From an uncultured Chloroflexia bacterium (GTDB taxonomy: Bacteria; Chloroflexota; Anaerolineae; Anaerolineales; Villigracilaceae), in the NCBI GenBank assembly GCA_963741325.1, contig CAVUHJ010000002.1, positions 59,373 through 123,372 of the forward strand: DNA of 64,000 bases, in the 5' to 3' direction. Every line of letters starts with the position of its first letter. The first letter of the stretch is position 1. Made by a program: the position numbers and the translations under genes. The notes below the pieces were generated by a model that worked only from the letters and a program-made list of their open reading frames with translations, was not told where the DNA came from and made no database searches. This document shows positions 7,091-55,022 of the stretch, one piece after another.

Positions 7091-8457
7091 TCAATTCTTT
7101 TTTGTTTTCCGTTCTAGTTTCTTAATGGCGCGCGCCGGCACGCCCACCACCAGGGTATCGGCGGCTACATCCTTCGTCACCACGGCTCCCGCACCGGTCT
7201 TCGCGCCGTCGCCGATCTTCAGCGGAGCCACAAGCATGGTGTCTGAGCCGATGAAAACATCCGAGCCGATCTCGGTTGGATTCTTCTTCTCGCCGTCGTA
7301 ATTGCAGGTGATCGTCCCGGCGCCGATATTCGTGTTCGCGCCGATGGTGGCATTCCCAATGATATGAAAAATGTCCCACCTTGACTCCCGGCGCCAGGTA
7401 CGAATCTTTAACCTCGCCAAAATTGCCCATGTGGACATGGTTCCCGAGATGCGCGCCTTTGCGCAGCCGGGCGAACGGGCCCATATCGATATCGTCTTCC
7501 AGCACCGCGCCCTCCATCACGGAGGCCAGCACCTTGCACCGGTTCCCGATTTTTGAATCACGGATGATCGTATTGGGTCCCAGGATATTCCCTTCCCCGA
7601 TCACGGTCTTGCCATGGATATAGGTGTTCGGCATGATGACGGTATCTTTGCCGATCGTTACGCCGGCCTCGATATAAGTGGAGGCCGGGTCTGTCATGCT
7701 GACGCCGTTCAACATGTGTGCACGGTTGATGCGCTGGCGCATGGCGGCTTCCGCCTCCGCCAGGTGCACGCGGGTATTGATGCCGATGGTCTCGATCAGG
7801 TCATCGTGTACGACGGCTTGAACGGCCAGATGGTCCTTTACTGCCAGCTCCACGACATCGGTCAGATAATACTCCCCTTTTTGCGGGTTTTTTTGAATGC
7901 GCGGCAGCGCCTCCCACAGCCACTCGGACCTGAAGCAGTACGCGCCTACATTGAGTTCGCGGATGTTAAGTTGCTCGGGCGTGGCGACGTATTCTTCAAC
8001 AATGGCTTCCACATTTCCCTGCGGCCCGCGCACGATCCGTCCAAAGCCGCGCGGATCATCTGACATGACGGTCAGCAGGCTGAAGGGTCCGGGGTTGTCC
8101 TGTTGGGTTTCGACAGAGTCGCTTATAGGTCTCGCCTTGCAGCAGGGGCATATCTGCATATAGGACGATCACATAATCCGATTTCCCTTTGAGCAGGTCC
8201 TTCGCCTGCAAGGCGGCATGCGCCGTTCCCAATTGCGGCTCCTGCACGACGCAGTCGGCGGTATCACCCACAAAAGATTTCACTTGTTCCGCGCCGTGTC
8301 CCACGATCACAACCGGCTTCTCGGTGGATACGGCCTTCACGGCTTCAAGCACATACCAGAGCATGGGTTTTCCACACAGGGGATGCAGCACCTTGGGCAG
8401 ATCCGACTTCATGCGCGTGCCCTGCCCGGCTGCAAGTAAGATGGCGGCAACTTTCAT
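7091..8457 (-). CDS. glmU: Bifunctional GlcNAc-1-P uridyltransferase / GlcN-1-P acetyltransferase; frame broken near 8110 and 7400
   Basis: [26 protein letters not shown].. N-terminus, left-handed beta-helix hexapeptide C-terminus; three ORFs in different frames join seamlessly. Confidence 0.85.
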
Positions 8458-8562: not shown

Positions 8563-8633
8563 CTGGGGCGCCTGGATTCGAACCAAGATCCACAAATTCA
8601 AAGTCTGGTGTGCTGCCCTTGCACCACGCCCCA
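8563..8633 (-). tRNA. tRNA-Gln (anticodon UUG), no encoded CCA
   Basis: Hand-folded cloverleaf: acceptor UGGGGCG/CGCCCCA with U1-A72 and G73, D stem GUGC/GCAC, loop CUUUGAA, T arm CUUGG-UUCGAAU-CCAGG; one C-U mismatch in the anticodon stem. Confidence 0.7.
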
Positions 8634-12181: not shown

Positions 12182-12826
12182 ATGACAAACAATGATCAAG
12201 GCAATAAAGACATCAAGTCAAAAAGACCGGCATGGAGGTTTTATATCCTGTGGGTATTGGCCAACGGAATAGGACCGATCATCGGTGTGTTCGTATTCTT
12301 TTTCCTTGCGGCTTCTTTGGGATTGCTCGGCTCACGGTTACCCGGACAACAAACAAATTTAGACTCTGGCTGGAAAATGATCACTGAGTACTCCCTGGCA
12401 TCTCACTGCTTTTCGGCGGCAATCATCGGAGCCATGCAATGGCTTGTGCTCCGCAAGCACATCACGAATTCAAGGTTTTGGTTTGCCACAAGTGCGATAG
12501 CCATGGTTACTGGCATTGCCGCCAGCAGTGTGATGTCAATGTTCTTCCCATTGCATCAAATGTCAAGCCTGTTGATATCCTGGTTCCTCTTTGGCAGCGT
12601 AAGCGGTGTTTTGCAGTGGGTCATGCTGCGGAAGCAGCTGCATTACTCGGGCTTATGGATATTCGTAAATGTTATCGCAGGGGGGATCGCTGGTGTTTTC
12701 TTGCCGGATTTAGGAATTACCGGAGGAAGTATTGGCTGGGCCCTGACCGGGATATTTACCGCGGGAATACTGTTCTTATTATTCCAAAGGACGAAGAGGG
12801 GCTCCGTCTCTCAAAGCGCAGCCTAA
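12182..12826 (+). CDS. Hypothetical membrane protein (4-5 TM)
   Basis: ATG at 12182 preceded by AGGA; the upstream part of ORF 11843-12826 overlaps oppD antisense and looks non-coding. Confidence 0.45.
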   Translation: MTNNDQGNKDIKSKRPAWRFYILWVLANGIGPIIGVFVFFFLAASLGLLGSRLPGQQTNLDSGWKMITEYSLASHCFSAAIIGAMQWLVLRKHITNSRFWFATSAIAMVTGIAASSVMSMFFPLHQMSSLLISWFLFGSVSGVLQWVMLRKQLHYSGLWIFVNVIAGGIAGVFLPDLGITGGSIGWALTGIFTAGILFLLFQRTKRGSVSQSAA

Positions 12827-34137: not shown

Positions 34138-35318
34138 CTTTGAGGTCCGTGCTGAGCACATCGCGCAGCGTGTCCACGAGATGGTCGAGCTGTTCATAGG
34201 TAATGACCAGCGGCGGCAGGAGGCGGATCACCGTCAGACCGGCGTTCAAGGCCAGGATATGCCGCGCCTGCAGTTCTTTGATATACGGTTGAACCTTTTG
34301 TTTCAGCTCGATGCCGACCATCAATCCCAAGCCCGCGCACTTCGCGGATCAGCGGCGAGTTGATCTCGGATAATTTGTCCATGAGGTAGGCGCCTTTTTC
34401 GGCGGCCTGGCCGGGCAGGTCCTCTTCTTCGATGACTTCCAGGGCAGCCACCGCCGCGGCGCAGGAAAGCGGGTTGCCGCCGAAGGTGGACCCATGCACA
34501 CCCGGGACGAGGTTCTTGATCTTCGGGCCGATCAAGACCGCACCGATGGGCACCCCGCCCGCCAGCGACTTGGCGCAGCACAGCATGTCCGGCGTAACGC
34601 CGGTATGCTGCACCGCAAACAATTTCCCGGTGCGGCCAAACCCGCTCTGGACTTCATCCACGATCAGCAGCGCCTCATGCGCATCACAGATGCGGCGGGC
34701 CGCCTCGATATACGCTTTATCCGCCGGGTACACTCCGCCTTCGCCCTGCACCACTTCGACGATAAACGCGGCGGTCTCATCGGTAACGGCCTTCTCCAGC
34801 GCGGCGATATTGTTATACGGCACGTGGCTGAAGCCGGGGACAAGCGGCTCGAAGCCTTCACGATATTTTTTGTTATAGGTGGCCGAAAGCGAACCCAGCG
34901 TGCGACCGTGGAAGGCGCGCATGGTCGCAACGATACCGGCGCGCCCGGTGGAGATGCGCGCAAATTTGATGGCAGCTTCGATCAACTCGGTGCCGGAGTT
35001 GCAGAAGAAGACCCGGTCCAGCCCCGGCACGAGCGTCCCCATTTTTTGGACTAGCGCCGCGCGTTTATCATTGTAAAAACTCTCGAACAGGGTGACCAGC
35101 CTAGTGGCCTGTTCCGCCAGCGCGGCAGCTACCTTGGGATGCGCATGTCCCAGGTTCGCCACGCCGTGCCCGGAATTACAATCCAGGTATTCGACCCCGT
35201 CAATATCCCACAGCAAGGCTCCCTGCCCGCGCACGAAGATGATGGGCTGCTTGGTATACAGCCCCGAGGCGAAGTGCGACTCGGCCTCGATGATTTCAGT
35301 TGCCGTTAAAGTTTTCAT
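34130..35318 (-). CDS. lysJ: [LysW]-aminoadipate semialdehyde / acetylornithine aminotransferase; frame broken near 34325
   Basis: Class III PLP transaminase motifs (..[27 protein letters not shown]..). Confidence 0.8.
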
Positions 35319-36136
35319 TGGATCACTGTTCCTTTACCTGATAATGCGTTCACGATTGGGTTTTGAATGCGACCATCCGCGATGATCACCCGCTTCACTC
35401 CGCCCTTGAGAGCTTCTTCTGCGCCGAGCACCTTTTTCTTCATCCGGCCCTGCGCCGCTTCGAGCGCGGCCGGAAGCTGGCTTTGCGAAAGCTGAGGGAT
35501 CACCGTGCTCTCGTCGGGGAAATTTTTCATCAGCCCCGGCACGGCAGTGAGCAAGACCAGCGTCTCGGCCTGCAGGGCCGAAGCGATACTGGCGGCAGCC
35601 CGGTCGGCATCGATATTCAAGGCCTCGCCCTTCTGGCTGACCGCCATCGGCGCGATGACCGGCAGATAGCCGTTCTCCAGCAATATCTTGAGCAGTGCGG
35701 TGTCCACTTTCTCAACCTTGCCGGTGTAATCATCGCGTATTATTTTGCGTTTGCCGTTCTCGACGCTCTGGATGGAGTCCTTGCGCGCCGCCTGCATCAA
35801 ACGGCCGTCGAGGCCGCTCAGGCCAAAGGCGTTTACGCCCAGCATTTGCAGTTGTTCCACCAATAAGGTATTGACCTTGCCTTTAACCGCCATGGCGAAG
35901 ATCTCCAGGGTCTTGCGGTCGGTGTAGCGCGAGGTATAACCGGACGGTGACGTGATGAAGCGCGGCGGCGTGCCCAATGCTTCGCCCAGGGCGCTGGCTT
36001 CGGCCGAGCCGCCGTGCACGAACACCAGCCTGTTGCCCTGTTTGAGAAGCTCCGCGGCGTCGGCGCAGACAGCGGAGAAATCAACACCTTCCGTCCCGCC
36101 GAGTTTCACTACTGTAATGGTAGTTTGAATTGACAT
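35315..36136 (-). CDS. lysZ: [LysW]-aminoadipate kinase / acetylglutamate kinase family
   Basis: Intact 273 aa; ..VVKLGG..LVFVHGGS.. amino-acid kinase fold; ATGA overlap with lysJ. Confidence 0.8.
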   Translation of the reverse strand: MSIQTTITVVKLGGTEGVDFSAVCADAAELLKQGNRLVFVHGGSAEASALGEALGTPPRFITSPSGYTSRYTDRKTLEIFAMAVKGKVNTLLVEQLQMLGVNAFGLSGLDGRLMQAARKDSIQSVENGKRKIIRDDYTGKVEKVDTALLKILLENGYLPVIAPMAVSQKGEALNIDADRAAASIASALQAETLVLLTAVPGLMKNFPDESTVIPQLSQSQLPAALEAAQGRMKKKVLGAEEALKGGVKRVIIADGRIQNPIVNALSGKGTVIQ

Positions 36137-36281
36137 AGGTTATTCCGGATTAATACCTCGAGTTTATTGAAAAAAGATTTAACGCCGAGTCGCGAAGGCG
36201 CAAAGATTCTTTTATTTTCTAACTTGGCAACTTAGCGTCTTCACGTTAAGGCTAGATTCTTATGAACGTTCCAAGGTTCCT

Positions 36282-36384
36282 GTCATTGCGAACGTAGTGA
36301 AGCAATCTCAAATTTCCATGCAAATTTACAATAAGATTCTGGTTTGAGATTGCTTCGTCGCTAGGAAACGCTCCTCGCAATGAC
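36282..36384. repeat. GTCATTGCGA..CTCGCAATGAC palindromic repeat (copy R1) between lysY and lysZ
   Basis: Termini GTCATTGCGAAC / CCTCGCAATGAC; inner pair GAAGCAATCTCAAA / TTTGAGATTGCTTC. Confidence 0.8.
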
Positions 36385-36393
36385 GCATCACAT

Positions 36394-37428
36394 TTATATC
36401 GGGTGCAGACCCGCAAAGCCCAGGCCGGTCGTTTCGTCCAGGCCGAGCATCAGATTCATGCACTGCACCGCGGAGCCGGCCGCGCCTTTCATCAGGTTAT
36501 CGATGGCGCACAGCGCGACCACATGGCCGGTGGCCTCGTCCAGCTCGAAACCCAGGTCCGCATAGTTGCTCCCGGATAACACTTTAGGCTCCGGCACGCG
36601 GTAGATGCCGCGCTGTTCCTTGACCACGCGGACGAACGGGTTTTCATCTGCCACGGCCCGGTAGGCTTTCCACAGGTCCTTGTTCGTCACGCCGGGCTTT
36701 ACCCTGGCATGCGCGCTCGCCAAAACGCCGCGAACCAGGTCCACGGCGGTCATAGTGAGAGTGACATCCTTCAGGCCCAATTCCTGGATGACTTCCGCTG
36801 TATGACGATGACCGAAGGCCGAGAAGGTGCGGATCACGTTGGCGCGCTCTGCATGGTGCGAACCGGCATTGCCTTCCGCTCCCGATTCCGAGGAGCCGAC
36901 TTTCACTTCGATGATGACCGGCGCAGATGGGTCGATAAGCCCGGCCTTAACCAGCGGCAGCAGCGCCAGATTGCTGGCGGTCGCGTTGCAGCCTACACCG
37001 CTCACGTAACAGGCACTTGATAGATCGGCGCGGTGCAGTTCCGGCAGGCCGTACACGAATTTGCTCAACCATTCCGGTGCGGCATGCGGGGCGCCGTACC
37101 ACTGCTCGTAATCGGCCGGGCTTCGTAGGCGGAAATCGGCGGACAGGTCAACGATCTTGCCGGCCAGCGAGGCATAATTTGCAATCTGCTTCTGCGCCTG
37201 CCCATGCGGCAGGGCCAGGAACAACACATCCACCGGCTCGATCTGCCCGGGGTCGCTGAACTTGAGCTTGGTCTGCTTGCGCAGGTTCGGATGCACCTGG
37301 TAGACGTATTCGCCCAGGTGCGATTGCGAAGTGGCCTGCCTGACTTCGACCTGCGGGTGGCTGAGCAGCAGGCGGAGCAATTCGCCGCCGCCGTAGCCGG
37401 ACCCGCCTACTATGGAAACACTGACCAT
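36394..37428 (-). CDS. lysY: [LysW]-aminoadipate-6-phosphate / N-acetyl-gamma-glutamyl-phosphate reductase
   Basis: AAGGAG RBS; MVSVSIVGGSGYGGGELLRLL..; active-site region ..YVSGVGCNATA.. Confidence 0.8.
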   Translation of the reverse strand: MVSVSIVGGSGYGGGELLRLLLSHPQVEVRQATSQSHLGEYVYQVHPNLRKQTKLKFSDPGQIEPVDVLFLALPHGQAQKQIANYASLAGKIVDLSADFRLRSPADYEQWYGAPHAAPEWLSKFVYGLPELHRADLSSACYVSGVGCNATASNLALLPLVKAGLIDPSAPVIIEVKVGSSESGAEGNAGSHHAERANVIRTFSAFGHRHTAEVIQELGLKDVTLTMTAVDLVRGVLASAHARVKPGVTNKDLWKAYRAVADENPFVRVVKEQRGIYRVPEPKVLSGSNYADLGFELDEATGHVVALCAIDNLMKGAAGSAVQCMNLMLGLDETTGLGFAGLHPI

Positions 37429-37484
37429 GCTGAACTCCTTGGTCTTGCTGAGTTTAGGTAAACCGTAGCGGCGAGAGGATGCCG

Positions 37485-38560
37485 CTACGGGCAGTGATAC
37501 GGTCGCGATACCGATTCGCATGAGCTTTTCCCTTCCGTTATCACGGAGAGGACGAAAAGGAATTCCGGTATTCTTTCAGAAGCAACAGGTAATAACGTTA
37601 GATTGATCAAAGGATGTACGATTTTTGAGAATGAAAGAAATCCTTTTATTCTCCGAAATGGAGTGTTCTTTAATGAAGGACAGATATTCATTGTGCGCTG
37701 GTACTCCGCGACTTCGAGCACGTAGCTCACGATCTCGTCGGCGATATCCACGCCGCTGATGGGCTGGGCGGTATGGAACTCCATGGTGTGGTTGAGCTCG
37801 TTCACCACCAATCCCTTCTCAGGATGTTCCACCAGGTCGATAGCCAGCACGCCGCCGCCCACCGCTGCCGCAGCCTTGAGGCACAGGGCTTCGATCTCCG
37901 GCGTGAGCGGGCACAGCTCGCCTTCGCCGCCCCGGGCGGTGTTGGTGATCCAGTGCTCCGACTTGCGATAGATGGCGGTCAGCACGCGGTCGCCGACCAC
38001 GATGGCGCGGATGTCACGTCCGGGCTTGGCGATGTATTCCTGGATGTAAAACACCGAGTGCTGCACCGAGCCCGAGCATGGACTTATGCTCCAGGATGGC
38101 CTCTGCGGCATCGCGATCATTGACCTTCGCTAACAGCCTGCCCCAGGACCCGACCACCGGCTTGAGCACCACCGGGTAGCCAAAGGTTTCGATGGCCGCC
38201 AGTGCCGCCTCGGGCGTGAACGCAACCACGTTGTGAGGCTGAGGCACACCCGCCGCGGGCCAGCATGGCGGAAGTGGTGAGCTTGTCGCCGCAGATCTCG
38301 GCCACCGCCGCGGTATTCACGGTGGGCACGTCGAAGGCGTTCAGGACGCGCAGGGCGTTCAGCCCGCTGGTGAAACTGATGCTGCGCTCCAGCACGGCAT
38401 CGAACGCCCGCCACGGCTGCGGGTTATCCAGGTCGAAAGAGATCGTCCGGTCGTCGAGACGCTCGTAATCGATGCCGCGCTTTTCCAGCGCGGCAAAGAT
38501 CCATTTTTCTTCCACGCGCACGCGCGAATAGAGCACGCCGATATGCAGGCGGTTCCGCAT
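37485..38560 (-). CDS. lysX: RimK/LysX-family ATP-grasp ligase next to lysW; frame broken at least 2 times, true stop probably near 37690
   Basis: ..[60 protein letters not shown].. Confidence 0.75.
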
Positions 38561-38564
38561 GCGG

Positions 38565-38738
38565 TTACTCGCCCCAGTCCTCTTGCTCCATGGGAGCCGG
38601 TTGGACGGCAGCGGGCTGCAGGGAGACGACCTCCAGGTCCACTCCGCAATCGGGGCAGACGATGATCTCGCCCACTTCGGTGTTCTCTGCCAGGTTGATC
38701 TCGGCCGCGCATTCGATACAGGAAACGTTGTTGTTCAT
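38565..38738 (-). CDS. lysW: Amino-group carrier protein LysW (57 aa; absent from the ORF track because it is under 60 aa)
   Basis: Hand translation MNNNVSCIECAAEINLAENTEVGEIIVCPDCGVDLEVVSLQPAAVQPAPMEQEDWGE*; CxxC..CxxC zinc ribbon and C-terminal EDWGE; AAGGAGAAAAGA RBS. Confidence 0.85.
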   Translation of the reverse strand: MNNNVSCIECAAEINLAENTEVGEIIVCPDCGVDLEVVSLQPAAVQPAPMEQEDWGE

Positions 38739-38786
38739 TCTTTTCTCCTTGGTTTGATTATTTTTGAAACACTATCGTATTCATTT

Positions 38787-38918
38787 GTCATTGCGAGCCG
38801 GTTGAGTAGGCGGCGTTCTTCCGCCGTAAAGTGTGCAATCTCGCTTTATTCAGGATATCTCTTGTCTAAACAGTGGATTGCCACGCCGCCAAGAGCAAGA
38901 ACGGCGGCTCGCAATGAC
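38787..38918. repeat. GTCATTGCGAG..CTCGCAATGAC palindromic repeat (copy R2) between argH and lysW
   Basis: One arm GTCATTGCGAGCCGCCGTTCTTGCTCTTGGCGGCGTGGCAATCC is nearly identical to the first arm of R3. Confidence 0.8.
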
Positions 38919-38926
38919 CCGCAAAT

Positions 38927-40301
38927 TCATTTCTTCATTAATTCTTTTGCATTTTGGATCTGCTTTCTTACGGACTCTCGGAGCCGTGCCTCCGATGACG
39001 TTCCTGCGTTCAACGGACTTCATCGGGTCAAGGACTGCGTATACATCTGCTTCGAACGCGGGACAGATGGCCTGATACCGTTCGATGGGTAACAACTCGA
39101 GTCCCAAGCCTTCGTCCGAGGCGGCACGGACGACTTTGCCCACCAATGTATGCGCTTCGCGAAACGGGACTCCCTTGCCCACCAGGTAATCTGCCAGGTC
39201 GGTTGCCATCATGAACGAATCGATGGCGGAGCGCATACGTTCCGGGCCAAGCGTTAAGGTTTGCAGCGCGCCCGCCAGCACCGGCAGGGTGCTCCCTACT
39301 ATGTCGTAAGCCGCGAAGACCAGCGCCTTATCCTCCTGCAAGTCCTTGTCATACGTGGAGGGCAGTGCTTTCAGCACGGATAGCATCCCCACCAACTGGC
39401 CGATGAGCACACCGGCTTTGCCGCGCGTCAGCTCGAACACATCGGGATTCTTTTTCTGGGGCATCAGGCTCGACCCGGTTGAAAAGGAGTCGGAGAGCTC
39501 GAAGAAGCCGAACTCCGTGCTGGTAAACAGGATGACCTGCTCGGCCAGCTTGCTCAAATGCACGCCGATCAGCGCGGCGCAGAACAGGAACTCTGCGGCA
39601 AAGTCGCGGTCTGAAACGGCATCCAGGCTGTTGGGAGAAGGCATACTAAAATGAAGCGCCTCCGCCAACGCAGTGCGGTCAACGGGGATGGGCGTACCGG
39701 CCAGCGCACCCGACCCCAGGGGCAGCACGGAAACTCGCTTGGCTAATTCGGCAAGCCGCTCGCGGTCACGTTCGAGCGGCCAGAAGTGTGAGAGCCACCA
39801 GTGAGCCAGCAGGATGGGTTGTGCGCGTTGCAGGTGTGTATAGCCCGGCATGAGAGTCTCGCCCGCCGCTTCGGCGCAGCCGATCAGCACCGATTGCAGA
39901 TCCGCCAACTCGGTTTGGATGCCGGGCAGGGACTGCAGCATCCAAAGCCGGAAGTCAGTGGCAACCTGGTCGTTGCGGCTGCGCCCGGTATGTAATTTAC
40001 CGGCTGCCGGGCCGATCAATTCCGTGAGGCGCCGCTCGACCGCGCTATGGATGTCTTCGTCATCGGGGGCAAAAGGAAACGTCCCGTTCGAAAGCTCGTC
40101 CAAAATAGAGTGCAGGCCGCTGTTGATCTGAGCGTGCTCGTCGTCGAGCAGCACGCCCGCCTTTTGCAGGGCCTGCGCCCAGGCCAGGCTGCCTTCCACA
40201 TCCTGCACAGCCAGGCGCCAGTCCACCGGCAGCGACGAGTTCAACTGCCGGGCCGAGGGGTCCAGCTTTTCGTCGAAGCGCCCGCCCCACATCTTGCTCA
40301 T
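38927..40301 (-). CDS. argH: Argininosuccinate lyase; frame broken near 38965
   Basis: MSKMWGGRFDEKLD.., ..GSSLMPQKKNPD.. signature; natural end ..QIQNAKELMKK* is recovered one frame over, stopping 8 nt before repeat R2. Confidence 0.85.
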
Positions 40302-40311
40302 GCCTTCTCCT

Positions 40312-41586
40312 TCAGTCACGTTTGAACCGTGAGTAATCGGGTTTGGGCATGTCCATGCCGGAGACGGGCAGCCCGTTGAGAGCGCGTACCTTCATCGATA
40401 AACCGAATAAACGAATAAATCCTTCCGCGTGACTCTGGTCGTAGACATCCTCCTGGCCAAAGGTTGCAAAATCTTCGCGATATAAACTGAACGGCGACTT
40501 GCGCCCGGCGGCGATGATATTGCCTTTGTAGAGCTTGAGCCGCACGGTGCCGGTAACGGGACCCTGGGTTGAATCCACAAACGCATCGATGGCCTCGCGC
40601 AGCGGCGTGAACCACAAGCCGTTATAGGTCAGCTCGGCATATTTGACCGCCACCATCTCCTTGAAATGCATGGTCTCGCGGTCGAGGATCAACGACTTCA
40701 AGTTCGCGATGGGCATGGAACAAGATCGTTCCGCCGGGTGTCTCGTAAACACCATGAGACTTCATCCCCACCAGGCGGTTCTCCACCAGGTCGACGCGGC
40801 CGATGCCGTGCGTGCCGCCGATGGCGTTGAGCCTTTCGACGATCTTGGCGGGCGACAACTTTTCATCGTTCACCGCCACGGGGCGTGCCGCTCTCGAATT
40901 CGATCGTGACGTACTGCGGCTTCATCCGGGGCATTCTCAGGGGAAGTGCTGATCTGATACATGGATTCTTCCGGCTCGTTCCACGGGTCTTCCAACAGCC
41001 CGCCTTCATGCGAAATATGCCACAGGTTCGAATCGCGGCTGTAGATGGACTTGATGGTGGCGGTGACCGGTACGTTATGCTTGGCGGCAAAGGCGATGGC
41101 GTCTTCGCGCGAGCGTATCTCCCATTCGCGCCAGGGAGCGATGATCTTCAAGCGCGGGTCGAGCGCCATGACGGTCAGCTCGAAGCGCACCTGGTCGTTG
41201 CCTTTGCCGGTCGCGCCGTGAGCGACGGCATCCGCGCCCACCTGATGAGCCACGTCCACCAGGTGCTTGGCGATCAGCGGCCGCGCCACCGAAGTGCCCA
41301 GCAGGTATTTGTGTTCATAGATGCCCCCGGCTTTGAGCATGCGGAACAGGTAATCTGCCGCGAACTCCTCCTTGAGGTCCTTGATCACGCACTGGCTGGC
41401 CCCGCTCTTCATGGCTTTCTGCTCGAGGCCGCGCAGGTCTTCGTCGCCCTGGCCCACGTCGGCGCAAAAGCAGACGACCTCACAGGCATAATTCTCCTTG
41501 AGCCAGGGCACGATCACAGACGTATCCAATCCTCCGGAATAGGCCAGGACGATCTTCTTCACTTGCGGTTTTGGTTTGGTTTTCAT
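40312..41586 (-). CDS. argG: Argininosuccinate synthase; frame broken about 3 times (near 40920, 40870 and 40720)
   Basis: ..[13 protein letters not shown].., ..[14 protein letters not shown].., ..[14 protein letters not shown].. across four ORFs. Confidence 0.85.
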
Positions 41587-41599
41587 AACAGCTCCTTGA

Positions 41600-41637
41600 A
41601 GCAAAATAAAACAGCCCTCCGAGAAGGAGGGCTGTTT
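41600..41637 (-). terminator. Intrinsic terminator 15-20 nt upstream of the argG RBS (attenuator candidate; also the end of the upstream unit)
   Basis: AAACAGCCCTCC-ttctc-GGAGGGCTGTTT followed by TATTTTGCTT on the minus strand. Confidence 0.7.
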
Positions 41638-41675
41638 GGGTTCACCGGCAGGTGCGCTTTTGTATTGCCTGCCTA

Positions 41676-41765
41676 TTCCATCATCCGAACCAAAAAAGAT
41701 CCAACCTTCTCACGGAGAAGTGGATGCGGACGACGGGTACGCGGGCTCACAAAAAGCCTTAACAT
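41676..41765 (-). CDS. Candidate 29-codon leader peptide, Arg-rich
   Basis: [30 protein letters not shown]; 6 Arg including tandem CGT CGT; the ATG lies 10 nt after the -10 box. Confidence 0.35.
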
Positions 41766-41775
41766 ATTGGGCGGT

Positions 41776-41803
41776 ATTCTACCACCCACCGCAAATATGT
41801 CAA
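41776..41803 (-). promoter_or_regulatory. Sigma-70-like promoter of the arg leader
   Basis: TTGACA-16 nt-TAGAAT then ACCGCCCAATATG. Confidence 0.5.
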
Positions 41804-42000
41804 TGCTGTTTTGGAAAATCTTTTTTGAAATTCTAAACTGATTGGCTGCTCTTTTGGCAGCCGAATCCCGATCCGCATTTAGAGTTGGGCTGTTTATGTT
41901 TGCATAGATGATCCTGTCAGCCTCAGAGAGTCTCTTAAGTCTTTGCTGCCTTCTATTTTGAACGCGGATTTCACAGACAAATAAGGATTTTTTTTCAAGA

Positions 42001-42045
42001 TTTTCCGCGTAAATCCGTTAAATCCGTGTTATCCGTGTACAAATC
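42001..42045. repeat. CCGCGTAAATCCG-type short repeat cluster
   Basis: TTTTCCGCGTAAATCCGTTAAATCCGTGTTATCCGTGT; related strings at 45731-45770 and 55310-55355. Confidence 0.6.
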
Positions 42046-42051
42046 GCCTCA

Positions 42052-42900
42052 TCAGGCCATTACCTTTGCCTGGGCCAATACATAATCCACCATCTTCTCC
42101 GGGATGTTGACTCCGGTGGTGGTGATGCTGTTGCGGAACTCCATGGTGTGATTGATCTCATTGATGGTCAGGCCGTTCTCGGTCTCGAACAAGTCGAGCG
42201 CCAGCAGTCCGCCTCCCATGGCCTGTGCGCCGCGCTGGCACAGGTCGGCGATCTCGTCCGTGACCGGGCAGTTGGTGGCAACCCCGCCGCGGGCCGTGTT
42301 GGTGATCCAGCTTTCCGAGGAACGGTAGATGGCGCAGATGGTCTCATCGCCGATCACGAAGGCGCGGATATCGCGCCCGGGCTTGTTGATATATTCCTGG
42401 ATGTAAAAGACCTGGTGGTTGACGCCCAGCGCGGCTTTATGTTCGATGAAAGCCTGGGCTGCCGAGCGGTCGTCCACTTTGGCCAGCAGCCGCCCCCACG
42501 ACCCGATCACCGGTTTGAGCACGCAGGGGTAGCCCACCTGGTCCATGGCGGCCATGGCGGAATCCTCGTCGAAGGCCATCAGCACGCGCGGCGTCGGGAT
42601 GTTGTTCCTGACCAGGATCTGGCTGGTGACGTATTTGTCGCCGCAGCGTTCGGCGATCACGGACGGGTTGATCACGGGCACGCCCTGCGCTTCGAAGATC
42701 CGGGAGATATACAGGCCTCGCGAATAGGAGATGGACCGTTCGAAAAGCACATCAACCTCCCAGGAGGGTTTTGAGATATCGAAGTACGTCTCGCCGTCCA
42801 GGATCCGGACGATCTCCACCTTGGGGCGGCGCGCTAATTCTTCCAGCAGGAGTTTCTCCTCGGGGCGCAGGCGGGTCATAAGAAAACCAATACGGGTCAT
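42052..42900 (-). CDS. Second RimK/LysX-family ATP-grasp ligase (LysX or ArgX paralogue)
   Basis: Intact 282 aa; roughly 50% identical by eye to the lysW-adjacent copy (..[50 protein letters not shown]..). Confidence 0.75.
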   Translation of the reverse strand: MTRIGFLMTRLRPEEKLLLEELARRPKVEIVRILDGETYFDISKPSWEVDVLFERSISYSRGLYISRIFEAQGVPVINPSVIAERCGDKYVTSQILVRNNIPTPRVLMAFDEDSAMAAMDQVGYPCVLKPVIGSWGRLLAKVDDRSAAQAFIEHKAALGVNHQVFYIQEYINKPGRDIRAFVIGDETICAIYRSSESWITNTARGGVATNCPVTDEIADLCQRGAQAMGGGLLALDLFETENGLTINEINHTMEFRNSITTTGVNIPEKMVDYVLAQAKVMA

Positions 42901-42903
42901 GCG

Positions 42904-44418
<1,515 letters not shown>

Positions 44419-44419
44419 G

Positions 44420-45677
44420 TCAGGCCTCCTCGAAAGTAGGGTCGTGGGTCGGTGATCTTGCCGGTCAGCGCTGTGGCAGCCGCGGTGGCCGGGCTGGCCA
44501 GGTAGATCTCCGATAGCGGGCTGCCCATGCGTCCGATGAAGTTGCGGTTCATGGTGGTGAGGGCCCGCTCGCCGGCCGCCAGGATCCCGCCGTGACGGCC
44601 GATGCACGCGCCGCAGCCTGAGCCGGTGACCGTGCAGCCCGCATCCATCAGGATCTCGATCAGCCCGTTCTGCAGGGCCTTCTTGTAGATGCGCGCGCTG
44701 GCCGGGGTGACGATGACGCGTGTATACGGGTGGACTTTTTTCCCTTTGAGCATGTTCGCCACGATCTCCAGGTCTTCATAACGGGCATTGGTGCAGGTGC
44801 CGATATAGACCTCCTGCACCTCCAGCCCGGTCACCTCGTCCAGCGGCTTGACGTTGTCCACATCCGGGTGGCAGGAGACCTGCGGCGCAAGCTCGGAAAC
44901 ATCGAGTTCCAGCACACGCTCGTAATGCGGGTTCACCGGCAGGATCATTTCGAACGGACCTTGAGCCGGTGTCTCCTTTTCAAGGTAGTCGAGCGTGACC
45001 TGGTCGGCGGCGATCAATCCGCATTTCGCGCCGATCTCGGTGGACATGTTCGGAAAAATAATGCGCTCATGCACCGGCAGGTTATCGATGTAGTCCCCGC
45101 CGAATTCCACGGAACGATAGGTGGCGCCGTCCATGCCCAGCAGGCCGGCGATATGGATCATCACATCCTTGGCATAAACTCCCGGCTGGGTCTTGCCATG
45201 CAGTTCCACCCGCAGGGTCTCCGGCACCTTGAACCAGCATTTCCCGGTCACCCAGGCCACGCCGATCTCGGTGGAGCCCAGTCCGGTGCCAAAGGCGCCC
45301 ATGGCTCCGTAGGTATTGGAATGCGAGTCGGCGCCGATGACGATGGACCCGGGCGTGACAAAGCCTTCCTCGATCATCACCTGGTGGCATACACCCTGCT
45401 TGAACAGGTAGGGCAGTTCCTGTTCTTTTACGAATTCCATGATCTTCTTATGGTTCTCGGCTGCCAGTATATTCGGCGCCGGATAGGCATGATCGAAATG
45501 GATCACGATGCGCTCCTTATCCAGGATCGGCTTGCCGATCTCCTTAAAGGCCTTGATGGCAAGCGGGGTGGTATTGTCGTGGCTCATGATGTAATCCACG
45601 TCCACCAGCACGATCTCACCGGCATGCACGTCATGCCCGGCTTTGCGGGAAAGGATCTCTTCAATCAAAGTACCCAT
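44420..45677 (-). CDS. hacA: Homoaconitase large subunit (LeuC-like); frame broken near 44445
   Basis: AGAAGGAGAG RBS; ..IGADSHSNTYGA.., ..GTCTNARYEDL.., ..GCGACIG.. Fe-S ligand motifs. Confidence 0.8.
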
Positions 45678-45730
45678 AATCTCTCCTTCTTTCGATTTGG
45701 TCTGTCCAACTGGCAAATCTATAAACTGGA

Positions 45731-45770
45731 CACGGATCAACGCGGATAAACGCGGATTTTTCGGGAAGGC
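45731..45770. repeat. ATCCGCGT-type short repeat cluster (inverted orientation)
   Basis: Reverse complement reads AAAAATCCGCGTTTATCCGCGTTGATCCGTGTCC. Confidence 0.55.
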
Positions 45771-45939
45771 CAAAGCGAGAAAAATCCATTCCGCCTTTGC
45801 GGATGGCCTTGATGCATAGAAACCGCCAAGCACGCAGAAAAAAATTGGCCTTCATCTTTGTTTATCTCTGTTCATCTCCGGTGAATTTCCACTACCGGAG
45901 GAACACTCTCCCATAAGCCATGCGGAAGCCTCATTTCGA

Positions 45940-47325
45940 TCACTCAGCCTTCCCGTTGTATTTTTTCAGCACCATGCGTGTCTCGGTGCGTTTCACCCCG
46001 ACCACCGTGCGGATCTCTTCGATCAGGTTGTTCAAGCGCCATCACGTTCTCCACGTTCACAAAAGCGTTGATGTCATAATCGCCCGTGAGCTCGTAGACG
46101 TAGTTCACATTCTTGAACCCGCGCAGCCGGCGCACCACCGACGTGGTGTATACATGGGATTCCACTTCCAGCATCACCATGGCGCTGATATCATGCGGGA
46201 TCACATCGATCTCCCGCCCGGTCACGCGTTCGGCGATCTCGATGATGTCCGTGTCGAACAACTGCTTGCGCTCATCGCCCAGGTTTTTGATGCGCGTGAC
46301 GATCACTTCCAGTTCCGCCGGGCTGACCTCGATGCCGTATTCATCCAGCCGGGCAGCCACGGCGCTCTTGCCGGTATATTTATCGATCACGATCTTGCGC
46401 TCCCGGCCCAGGATGGCCGGGTCGAACGGCTCATAGGTACGCGGGTCCTTGAGCACCCCGTTGCTGTGGACGCCGCTTTTGTGCGTAAAGGCGTTCTGTC
46501 CGGTGATGGGTTTATTGGGAGCCATGAAGAACCCGGAGACCTTTTCGAGATAGCCCGAAATATCCATCAAAGGCTGGATGTTGTACTTCTGATCGCCCTC
46601 CAGGTTATGAAAGGCAACGATGGTTTCCGCCAGGTCGGGGATGCCCGTCCGCTCGCCGAGGCCGTTCACCGTGGTATGGATGCAGTCCGCGCCGCCGCGG
46701 ATGCCCGCCATGGCATTCGCCAGCGCCAGGCCGTAATCGTTGTGGCAGTGCAGGTCTATCTTGCAATCCGACAAGCGCTCACGCAGGGCGCACACCCGCT
46801 CGAACATGCTGTGCGGCTGCATGATCCCCAGCGTGTCTGCGAAGCTGATGCGGTCCGCCCCGGCCTCGATGGCTGCGTTGCAGACCTTCACCAGGAATTC
46901 GAAATCGGTGCGGGTGGCATCCTCCGGCGTATAACGCACCTTCAGGCCCAGGCTGCGGGCATAGGCGATGTGGTCGCAGATGATCTCGATCGCCTGTTCC
47001 TGCGTTTTATGCAGCTTGGCATCCAGGTGGATTTTCGAGGTGGCATAAAAGATGGCGACCCTGTCCGCCCCGCAGTCTTTGGCCTTATCGATGCCGGACG
47101 CGTGCGGCGATGGAATGTGCCACGATCTCCGCTTTGAGCCCCAGCCCGGCGATGCGTTGGATGGCCTTGGCCACGCTCGGCGAAACGGACGGGTCGCCCG
47201 CTTCGATCATGTCCACGCCCACACTGGTCGAGCATCCGCGCAATCTCGACCTTTTCATCGATGGTAAAGTTGACATAAGGCGTTTGTTCGCCTTCGCGCA
47301 GGGTGGTATCCAGGATTTCGACCAT
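45940..47325 (-). CDS. hcs: Homocitrate synthase with a C-terminal RAM (Lrp/AsnC ligand-binding-like) domain; frame broken about 4 times
   Basis: [16 protein letters not shown].., ..[12 protein letters not shown].., tail ..[80 protein letters not shown]. Confidence 0.8.
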
Positions 47326-47342: not shown

Positions 47343-47383
47343 TTAAACAAAAAAACGCGCTCTCCGATATCGGAGAGCGCGTT
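47343..47383 (-). terminator. Intrinsic terminator 29 nt upstream of the hcs ATG (attenuator candidate)
   Basis: AACGCGCTCTCCGATATCGGAGAGCGCGTT followed by TTTTTTGTTT on the minus strand. Confidence 0.75.
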
Positions 47384-47427
47384 GGTAATAGAAAATAGAC
47401 GTGAAGCGTTAGCTTATGTCTTTCTGA

Positions 47428-47529
47428 TTAACCAGCGCAGGCCCACAGATTCCGACTATCGAAGATTCCGGACGTGGGCAGGCGCTTAGCGTTGGCCTCA
47501 AAAACAAATGCAGGATTCATCTTGCTCAT
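47428..47529 (-). CDS. Candidate 33-codon leader peptide
   Basis: MSKMNPAFVFEANAKRLPTSGIFDSRNLWACAG*; the ATG lies 10 nt after the -10 box. Confidence 0.3.
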   Translation of the reverse strand: MSKMNPAFVFEANAKRLPTSGIFDSRNLWACAG

Positions 47530-47539
47530 ATTGGGCAGG

Positions 47540-47568
47540 TTTATACTCTTATATGTGTGAATTGTCAA
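47540..47568 (-). promoter_or_regulatory. Sigma-70-like promoter of the lys leader
   Basis: TTGACA-17 nt-TATAAA then CCTGCCCAATATG. Confidence 0.55.
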
Positions 47569-47730
47569 CAAATAGCTACCTTAAATCTTTTTCTTTGGTG
47601 CCACTCTCGTAAAAAATGTAAGCTCCTGTCCACTTGACCAGGAGCAAAACTCCTCAACGGGCGGGGAAGTTCTGTATTAACTCACCTTAAGCAAAATGTA
47701 TTGCAGGTCCCAGTAATCCAGGAGAAGCGT

Positions 47731-54600: not shown

Positions 54601-55022
54601 GTAAAAAGCGTGCCCAAAGCTACGACATCGCAGAGGTCGAAGGCATCGGCCCTGCCTATGCCGCGCGGCTGAGGAAATTAGGCATCCATACGACCGACGA
54701 ACTGCTGAAGGTGGCCGATTCCCGCAAAGGCCGGCAGGTGCTTTCCGAAAAGAGCGGCTTCTCCGTCGAGCGGATCCTGGAATGGGTGAACCGCGCCGAC
54801 CTGATGCGCGTGCCTGGCGTCGGTTCGGAATACAGCGACCTGCTCGAAGCGGGCGGCGTGGATACGGTGAAAGAGCTTCGCCGTCGCAACGCTGAAAACC
54901 TCTATAACACGCTCCGCAGGGTCAACCAGAGGAAGAAGCTGGTTCGTCGCCTGCCCGACCTGGAAGAGGTACAGGCCTGGATCGCCTCCGCCAGGAAGAT
55001 GAAAACGCTCGTAACGTATTGA
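51623..55022 (+). CDS. About 1130-aa composite protein: signal/anchor, vWA domain, beta-sandwich repeats, nine Leu-rich TM helices, small cytoplasmic domain, DUF4332-like C-terminus; frame broken about 9 times (could be 2 genes)
   Basis: GTG after AGGAGAG; ..VVLLIDDTGSM.. and ..LLLTDGTPED.. (vWA MIDAS); TM array 53500-54240; ..YDIAEVEGIGPAYAARLRKLGIHTTDELL..VPGVGSEYSDLLEAGGVDTVKEL.. Confidence 0.55.
53515..54235 (+). repeat. CTG-rich quasi-repetitive coding block (tandem Leu-rich TM modules)
   Basis: Recurrent GATCCTGCTGCTGCTCCTGCTG-like strings; nine helices of type (F/S/Y)W.LLILLL.. Confidence 0.6.

Follow-up and report, generated by a model that had tools for sequence, protein, structure and literature searches.

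Within a 64,000-nucleotide (nt) stretch of DNA from an uncultured Chloroflexota bacterium, hereafter called the window, the gene argG is preceded on the minus strand by a leader region (the arg leader) that is, most probably, a ribosome-mediated leader-peptide transcription attenuator sensing charged tRNA-Arg. As judged from sequence and predicted folding, this attenuator would control argG-argH, and probably also the downstream genes lysW-lysX2-lysY-lysZ-lysJ. The sequence itself contains a conserved module, Arg codons, a reading frame and complementarity for both alternative pairings; from these we infer the transcript start, the translation of a short open reading frame (sORF), the stalling of the ribosome and the direction of the response. 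A homologous promoter-sORF-terminator module is located before argG in 13 related Chloroflexota genomes or metagenome contigs (L001, L002, L003, L004, L005, L009, L012, L081, L082, L162, L163, L166 and L168; L numbers designate loci), which together with the window provides a set of 14 leaders. In all, 160 argG loci and eight hcs loci were compared. A second leader in the window, the lys leader, precedes hcs. The elements of the arg leader, all of which are present on the minus strand, are as follows.

41798-41803, minus strand: -35 hexamer TTGACA of the leader promoter; TTGAC is found at the same place in L162, L163, L166, L168, L002, L003, L004, L005 and L012.
41776-41781, minus strand: extended -10 element, made up of the -10 hexamer TAGAAT and a TG that immediately precedes it; 12 of the 13 relatives likewise have a -10 box, 7-14 nt ahead of the ATG of the sORF.
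41766-41775, minus strand: ACCGCCCAAT, the 10 nt from the -10 box to the ATG, predicted to contain the transcript start; relatives have CCCAAT or a close variant, and it recurs in the lys leader.
41673-41765, minus strand: leader ORF of 30 codons plus TAG (41675-41673); each of the 14 family members keeps an open, in-frame ORF here.
41730-41741, minus strand: regulatory codons CGT ACC CGT CGT (Arg9, Thr10, Arg11, Arg12), the last two in tandem at 41735-41730.
41715-41725, minus strand: region 1, the 5' arm of hairpin P1 (AUCCACUUCUC), which begins 5 nt past the tandem Arg codons.
41699-41711, minus strand: region 2, GAGAAGGUUGGAU, with family motif GGAAGGYYGG (GAAGG..G invariant), serving as P1 3' arm or antiterminator 5' strand.
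41691-41698, minus strand: U-run directly past P1; most relatives have a U-rich stretch there.
41678-41687, minus strand: CGGAUGAUGG, which in the minimum-free-energy fold pairs with the Arg codons (CCGUCGUCCG, 41736-41727) and lengthens the 1:2 hairpin.
41621-41631, minus strand: region 3, CCCUCCUUCUC, the terminator distal 5' arm plus loop, complementary to region 2, a pairing that gives the antiterminator.
41602-41637, minus strand: intrinsic terminator with a GC-rich 12-bp stem (41637-41626 with 41620-41609), loop UUCUC and a U-rich tail.
41584-41597, minus strand: argG ribosome binding site (RBS) AAGGAG (41597-41592) and ATG (41586-41584); the RBS starts 11 nt after the terminator stem.

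Much of this layout had been proposed in an earlier reading made from the letters alone, to which we refer as the sequence-only reading. The promoter TTGACA-16-TAGAAT that it placed in a 465-nt spacer before argG is found at 41803-41776, the ATG ten nt past it is located at 41765, and the tandem CGT CGT occupies 41735-41730. The length of the spacer, measured from the stop codon of the lysX-type ligase (42054-42052) to the argG ATG, is indeed 465 nt, and TTGACA starts 249 nt downstream of that stop codon. Two details needed correction: the leader peptide does have 6 Arg, but in 30 sense codons instead of 29, and the terminator with its T-rich tail does precede the argG RBS, but at a distance of 11 nt instead of 15-20 nt. 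The terminator sequence at 41637-41609 reads AAACAGCCCTCC-TTCTC-GGAGGGCTGTTT and is followed by the T-rich tail. The 16-nt spacer of the leader promoter contains the TG mentioned above, and with 11 of 12 consensus positions the promoter is the best promoter-like site in the 36-52 kb part of the window. Taken alone, counts of promoter-like or terminator-like sites are not above chance, and the conclusion that the leader is more than a chance arrangement is therefore based on its conservation in relatives.

The nearest genomes are Anaerolineales/Chloroflexota metagenome-assembled genomes (MAGs), with ArgG identities of up to 91%. An ATG-initiated sORF of 23-35 codons is present in all homologous leaders, and the in-frame ATG is kept in 14 of 14. 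Examples of the starts of the encoded peptides are MYYPFALPRTRRPK, MSTQSVDIRSRRTS, MNAILLKPRARRIF and MFATKSFPRIRRPY. The conserved part of these peptides is R-x-R-R-[P/T/I], located at codons 8-13, and the remainder varies freely. R-x-R-R is present at codons 9-12 in 13 of the 14 leaders, the exception being L009, which has S-R-R due to an AGC Ser codon at the first Arg position. All other changes in the Arg codons are synonymous: the first codon is CGT or CGC, and the tandem pair is CGT CGT in 12 leaders and CGA CGA in 2. In the alignments of the 13 leaders other than L009, every one of the three Arg codons has an invariant C and an invariant G; with L009 included, invariance is limited to G in the first Arg codon and to C and G in the two tandem codons. 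The tandem pair follows the ATG at a distance of 27, 30 or 33 nt, indels upstream of the pair being multiples of 3. In the long ORFs of the window CGT accounts for merely 14% of the Arg codons, versus 43% for CGC, which shows that the tandem CGT CGT does not reflect use of a preferred codon. Thus the small ORF and its Arg codons, whose lack of conservation the sequence-only reading had named as grounds for giving up attenuation, are kept in 13 relatives.

The position of the sORF with respect to the promoter is conserved as well: 13 of the 14 leaders have their -10 box 7-14 nt ahead of the ATG. Because the predicted transcript start falls inside the 10 nt before the ATG, there is no room for a Shine-Dalgarno sequence and the sORF mRNA would be leaderless or nearly so; the spacing points to an sORF that is probably leaderless and translated without a Shine-Dalgarno sequence. 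In L009 the sORF starts 41 nt after the promoter and its 41-nt 5' untranslated region contains the Shine-Dalgarno-like sequence AAGGGA. The fact that L009 swaps a leaderless start for a Shine-Dalgarno-led one indicates that conservation concerns the translation of the ORF and not its start context.

Downstream of the Arg codons the conservation is of another kind. The motif GGAAGGYYGG is nearly invariant and is located 26-31 nt downstream of the first tandem Arg codon. Its frame with respect to the sORF differs among leaders, all three frames being represented, and its conservation is thus at the level of RNA and not of peptide. Hairpin P1, whose 3' arm contains this motif, forms in all 14 leaders with energies ranging from -6.7 to -21.2 kcal/mol. 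A search for one consensus P1 structure failed because the register of the stem differs among subfamilies, and per-sequence folds were therefore used. The Arg codons of the closest relatives pair with GGAUGAUG, thereby lengthening P1, a feature limited to this closer subfamily. The whole leader folds better than shuffled versions of it (z = -4.5). The U-run at 41691-41698 could be a site where RNA polymerase pauses, which would synchronise transcription with the leader ribosome, or it could be a weak first terminator. The terminator was found in 14 of 14 leaders and shows compensatory changes (CCCGCC/GGCGGG in L001, CCTTCC/GGAAGG in L081 and CCATCC/GGATGG in L166), and its covariation score was matched by none of 500 shuffles.

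The clear conservation of GGAAGG at the RNA level, the pairing of the Arg codons in the closest relatives and the z-score of the whole leader would also fit a structured cis-regulatory RNA, i.e. a riboswitch or a protein target, which senses arginine or a related signal and of which CGUCGU and GGAAGG form part, the ORF being incidental. We consider this improbable. An incidental ORF is at odds with the variation at the three Arg codons, which is synonymous and at the third position, positions 1 and 2 being invariant except in the first codon of L009; with the indels upstream of the pair, which are always 3 nt; and with the ATG, which is kept in all 14 leaders even where, in L009, the start is Shine-Dalgarno-led. 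Leader L002 is telling in this respect, as its CGA CGA breaks the pairing of the Arg codons with GGAUGAU and yet retains Arg. Unrelated leaders before argG likewise encode runs of Arg (see below), no Rfam family matches the leader, and it lacks a conserved multi-helix core resembling a ligand pocket.

Attenuation by a leader ribosome would require, in addition to translated Arg codons, two mutually exclusive structures, and such stems involving the Arg codons, for which the sequence-only reading had suggested to look, exist and are retained. Duplexes between regions 2 and 3 have energies of -10.5 to -18.9 kcal/mol in the first ten leaders, RNAalifold returned the 2:3 helix as consensus on the raw MAFFT alignment, and in the mask test described next this helix also forms in L162, L163, L166 and L168. 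On spliced alignments 86-89% of the cells at the 2:3 positions pair, versus 49-68% after sliding the partner by 1-3 columns. For the simulation of the switch, each leader was folded up to the end of the terminator loop, i.e. before region 4 exists, either free or with its 5' part masked. The mask reaches 12-20 nt past the first tandem Arg codon and stands in for a stalled ribosome whose A site holds the second Arg codon. In the free state of the switching leaders 0-7 nt of the terminator 5' arm plus loop pair with upstream sequences and region 2 is sequestered. In the masked state, even with the shortest mask (12 nt), 9-15 nt pair upstream in 11 of the 14 leaders, and the antiterminator is the minimum-free-energy fold. 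In all leaders the stop codon is located 10-45 nt after the start of region 2, which means that a ribosome that does not stall passes over region 2.

Based on these features, the attenuator would operate as follows. A strong sigma-70-type promoter would start the transcript a few nt from the ATG of the 30-codon ORF, in which codons 9, 11 and 12 specify Arg. With ample Arg-tRNA, the ribosome would reach the stop codon, and region 2 (GAGAAGGUUGG) would be covered by it or re-paired with region 1, in a pairing that adjoins the Arg codons and takes them in. The terminator 5' arm would then be free, so that the 12-bp terminator could form and transcription would end 11 nt before the argG RBS. When Arg-tRNA is scarce, the ribosome would stall at CGU CGU and keep region 1 single-stranded; region 2 would pair with the terminator 5' arm plus loop before the 3' arm is made, and RNA polymerase would continue into argG.

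Several observations weigh against this model. The leader belongs to an uncultured MAG lineage and is described here from sequence and predicted folding, its regulatory Arg codons number only 3, and leaderless initiation in this lineage is assumed. Individual z-scores of P1 are modest, and the simulated switch is less clean for L012 and, in part, for L005 and L009; in L012 the stop codon overlaps region 2, and the terminating ribosome would itself block the antiterminator. Covariation in the antiterminator is weak without the outlier L009, with one two-sided pair (columns 37/68, GC in 5 and AU in 4 leaders), and 40 of 500 shuffles then reached the observed percentage of paired positions. The covariation count seemed significant only as long as L009 was included, and for this reason the case for the antiterminator is based on the conserved complementarity together with the slid-partner control. 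The 2:3 helix is thus supported by conserved complementarity and not proven by covariation. Cognate 2:3 duplexes are, moreover, barely stronger than non-cognate ones (-14.5 versus -13.5 kcal/mol), a comparison that is uninformative because both strands are nearly invariant.

According to a further explanation, also raised in the sequence-only reading, the hairpin would serve solely to terminate the hcs-to-lysX unit constitutively or to insulate it, and the sORF would play no part in regulation. We consider this very improbable. It is true that the window contains no other terminator between the lysX stop codon and the leader promoter, and that read-through from the lys operon would probably be stopped at this position, since the sORF is then internal and lacks a Shine-Dalgarno sequence. 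A strong promoter separates lysX from the terminator, however, and the module travels with argG and not with lysX: the upstream neighbor is on the opposite strand in L001, L003, L004, L012, L081 and L082 and is an unrelated gene in L002, L005 and L009, whereas L164, L165 and L167, in which lysX has no argG next to it, have no such leader after lysX. The divergent neighbors in six relatives and the unrelated ones in three lead us to reject this explanation for the family. In addition, a terminator placed past its own promoter and 11 nt before the RBS of an essential biosynthetic gene would be sensible only if it is conditional. Known arrest peptides need a longer conserved tunnel segment (~10 or more residues). 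That R-x-R-R-P would be such a peptide, sensing free arginine in the ribosome tunnel like the fungal arginine attenuator peptide, TnaC and SpeFL instead of tRNA charging, is the least likely of the alternatives in spite of the Pro that follows R-x-R-R in 9 of the 14 leaders (Thr in 4) and of the precedent of ligand-sensing arrest peptides (TnaC, SpeFL; PMC12360218), because only ~5 residues are conserved, the N-terminal 8 residues and those after residue 13 varying, and because by the fold logic stalling at the Arg codons gives antitermination, so that arginine-induced stalling would raise argG at high arginine, the wrong sign for a biosynthetic operon.

Besides the tRNA-Arg-sensing attenuator proposed for argG, the window contains the lys leader, located before hcs at 47345-47571 on the minus strand; its promoter is TTGACA-17-TATAAA, its leaderless sORF has 33 codons and its terminator measures 13 bp. 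In 9 relatives it is found as a leaderless sORF with [K/N]-x-K-R-[K/L/R]-P, mostly K-S-K-R-K-P or N-A-K-R-L-P, the latter being the version in the window, and there is always one Arg codon among the Lys codons. In the free-versus-stalled simulation it follows the same 1:2, 2:3 and 3:4 logic as the arg leader. The start context that the sequence-only reading had described as common to both leaders, GCCCAATATG, occurs exactly twice in the 64 kb (41772-41763 and 47536-47527), one copy per leader, against an expectation of ~0.1 exact matches; each copy is preceded by a -10 box at a distance of 10 nt and has a strong terminator downstream of it. Its claim that the two leaders are built on one plan is borne out by the conservation of the lys leader and by its folding. 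An identical 21-mer, AATACCGCCCAATATGTTTAG, is present in both leaders of L163 (lys, about 7270-7300; arg, about 12660-12690); it takes in the -10 box together with the start region and codons 1 to 3 of the sORF, and this hints that the two leaders may be paralogous. Their likeness could stem either from duplication or from a shared constraint on leaderless starts. A scan of the window for further leaders on the same plan returned the arg and lys leaders only; a regular-expression match at 54695 (plus strand) was dismissed because it is inside a coding sequence.

Leaders with runs of Arg before argG are not limited to the homologous family. In the 300 nt upstream of all argG loci, Arg-run sORFs numbered 53 in sense and 28 in antisense orientation. 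This raw count is noisy because many of the upstream regions are coding, and it was therefore replaced by a count conditioned on a strict terminator at most 160 nt upstream of argG (16 loci). Of these 16 loci, 11 have an sORF in which 3 or more Arg fall within 4 codons; the next amino acid, Val, reached 3 loci. Among the 11 are seemingly non-homologous leaders, namely those of L011 (MIELMPLFRRIRRRRTDS), L035 (Neomarinimicrobiota; FSRRRSRL) and L090 (HNRRRRPRR), and similar Arg-run leaders are found in L084, L085, L088 and L013. Taken together, Arg-run leaders before argG recur in other Anaerolineae, in Neomarinimicrobiota and in several unassigned metagenome contigs. Plausible antiterminators were obtained upon folding for all five of the seemingly non-homologous leaders L011, L035, L084, L085 and L090, in which clear terminators or antiterminator candidates were seen; L013 and L088 have a weak hairpin only and a long spacer. 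The seemingly non-homologous Arg-run sORFs of these seven loci (RRIRRRR, RRRR, RRR) sit 150-250 nt upstream of argG.

A broader proposal can be put forward tentatively, and we regard it as possible though doubtful: the arg and lys leaders would be paralogous copies of one leaderless module, with cores R-x-R-R-P and K-x-K-R-K-P, that exerts two-tier, amino-acid-specific control over a bifunctional LysW-type lysine/arginine cluster, and the Arg-run leaders of unrelated lineages would mean that arginine attenuation is an overlooked and widespread alternative to ArgR.

The genes around the arg leader were identified by NCBIfam scans and from the gene calls of relatives. Their order is lys leader, hcs, hacA, hacB, the homoisocitrate dehydrogenase gene and lysX, followed by arg leader, argG, argH, lysW, a second lysX-like ligase gene, lysY/argC, lysZ and lysJ, and argG-argH is thus embedded in a LysW-type alpha-aminoadipate cluster. 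The placement of argG-argH between lysX and lysW/second lysX-like ligase/lysY/lysZ/lysJ is seen in the window (34194-47325, minus strand) and also in L162 and L163. It suggests that the LysW carrier pathway is common to lysine and arginine. If so, the terminator of the arg leader would also gate the shared downstream genes for transcripts that start at the lys promoter, which presents a regulatory puzzle.

Other features of this region were observed as well. Three direct ACGGAT repeats with a 9-nt period are located between the lysX stop codon and the arg-leader promoter (42013-42036, minus strand), with further copies near 41975 and 41872 plus GCGGAT copies. The spacer of L162 has no such repeats, which could be a protein-binding array or remnant sequence. 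Compared with the 88%-identical argG of L162, argG of the window (40300-41586, minus strand) has three single-base insertions near 40916, 40883 and 40696, and the frame is also broken in hcs (46942-47325), the homoisocitrate dehydrogenase gene (42897-43900) and the second lysX-like gene (37485-38120). These breaks suggest either decay of the genes or an assembly (long-read?) rich in indels. Between the window and L162, the arg leader aligns free of gaps. The homocitrate synthases of the clade (P0001-P0120, relatives of the product of the window hcs, 45944-47325) carry a C-terminal PF01037 domain (Lrp/AsnC-type ligand-binding), which may be an allosteric lysine-sensing module. A tRNA gene at 8563-8633 (minus strand) is the sole Rfam match at gathering score in the window.

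If the attenuator operates as proposed, the amino acid (arginine) and the phylum (Chloroflexota) would both be new for leader-peptide attenuation, and a probably Shine-Dalgarno-free leader peptide would be coupled to an intrinsic terminator. The two sister leaders may divide the LysW-type cluster into a Lys-controlled and an Arg-controlled half. The analysis provides a concrete regulatory annotation for a widespread uncultured lineage, and the 14 leaders can be used as seed for a covariance model to map the regulon.

Searches of databases and literature place the arg leader outside the described families. Rfam searches of the whole window at gathering score and of both leaders at E <= 10 returned no relevant match; none of the amino-acid leader models (His_leader, Trp_leader, Leu_leader, Thr_leader and Phe_leader) matched at gathering score, the best sub-threshold match being Phe_leader on the terminator (21 bits versus a cutoff of 55, E = 0.45), and the T-box model did not match the leaders even at E <= 10. 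Three arg-leader and two lys-leader peptides matched no Pfam or NCBIfam family at E <= 10. Control of arginine genes is generally ascribed to the ArgR repressor. An ARG-box-like palindrome conserved near the promoter was not seen by eye in the window, L162, L163, L166 and L168, no formal motif search having been made. In agreement with the remark of the sequence-only reading that attenuation by Arg codons would be unusual, literature searches found no bacterial Arg leader peptide for arginine biosynthesis, although subscription papers were incompletely covered and this absence is not proof.

Textbook leader-peptide attenuation concerns Trp, His, Leu, Thr, Phe and Ile/Val and is described mostly from Proteobacteria and Actinobacteria; to our knowledge, arginine is outside the set of amino acids with classical leader attenuators. 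Mechanistically, the arg leader is an attenuator of the trp/his type. In common with the enterobacterial attenuators (trpL, hisL, leuL, thrL, pheL, ilvL/ivbL) it has a short ORF with codons for the end product, a 1:2 hairpin over the regulatory codons, an antiterminator formed by regions 2 and 3 and, just ahead of the first structural gene, an intrinsic terminator formed by regions 3 and 4, and the number of its regulatory codons, three of which two are in tandem, is like that of trpL. It differs from them in the amino acid, in its Chloroflexota host, in an sORF that begins 10 nt after the -10 box without Shine-Dalgarno sequence, and in having no sequence or covariance-model similarity to the Rfam leader families. 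According to Naville and Gautheret (2010), leader peptides were known only from Proteobacteria and Actinobacteria, to which they added a His example from Firmicutes (PMC2965389).

Sensing of arginine by a leader ORF has a precedent in the Salmonella speF leader (orf34/speFL), in which two consecutive Arg codons of an upstream ORF (uORF) sense arginine and ribosome pausing at these codons selects between mRNA folds (PMC6386406). Unlike the arg leader, that of speF controls ornithine decarboxylase, i.e. polyamine synthesis, employs Rho-dependent termination, RBS occlusion and RNase G sensitivity instead of an intrinsic terminator, and also senses ornithine via its peptide. Mycobacterial sORF attenuators resemble the arg leader in having an sORF at or near the 5' end of the transcript, the start of the arg-leader transcript being predicted, and in being enriched in cognate codons. 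The leaderless polycysteine sORF Ms5788A acts on translation by sequestering the Shine-Dalgarno sequence (bioRxiv 10.1101/834739), and the ilvB1 uORF attenuator uses a terminator/antiterminator pair (PMC13236596). They differ in that they concern other amino acids and Actinobacteria, and the Cys type does not act by termination. ArgR/AhrC acting at ARG boxes serves the same genes and the same physiological signal, but through protein-DNA repression at the promoter and not through an RNA switch. Finally, the lysine cluster of Thermus thermophilus is reportedly under leader-peptide attenuation, as Tsubouchi et al. are said to have described in 2005 in J Biol Chem. Like the leaders studied here, this Thermus leader is said to be a short ORF with regulatory codons and a terminator that precedes a cluster of hcs and LysW-pathway genes; it differs from the arg leader in that it senses lysine, is located upstream of hcs instead of argG and belongs to another phylum, and, compared by description only, it is the closest analogue of the neighboring lys leader.

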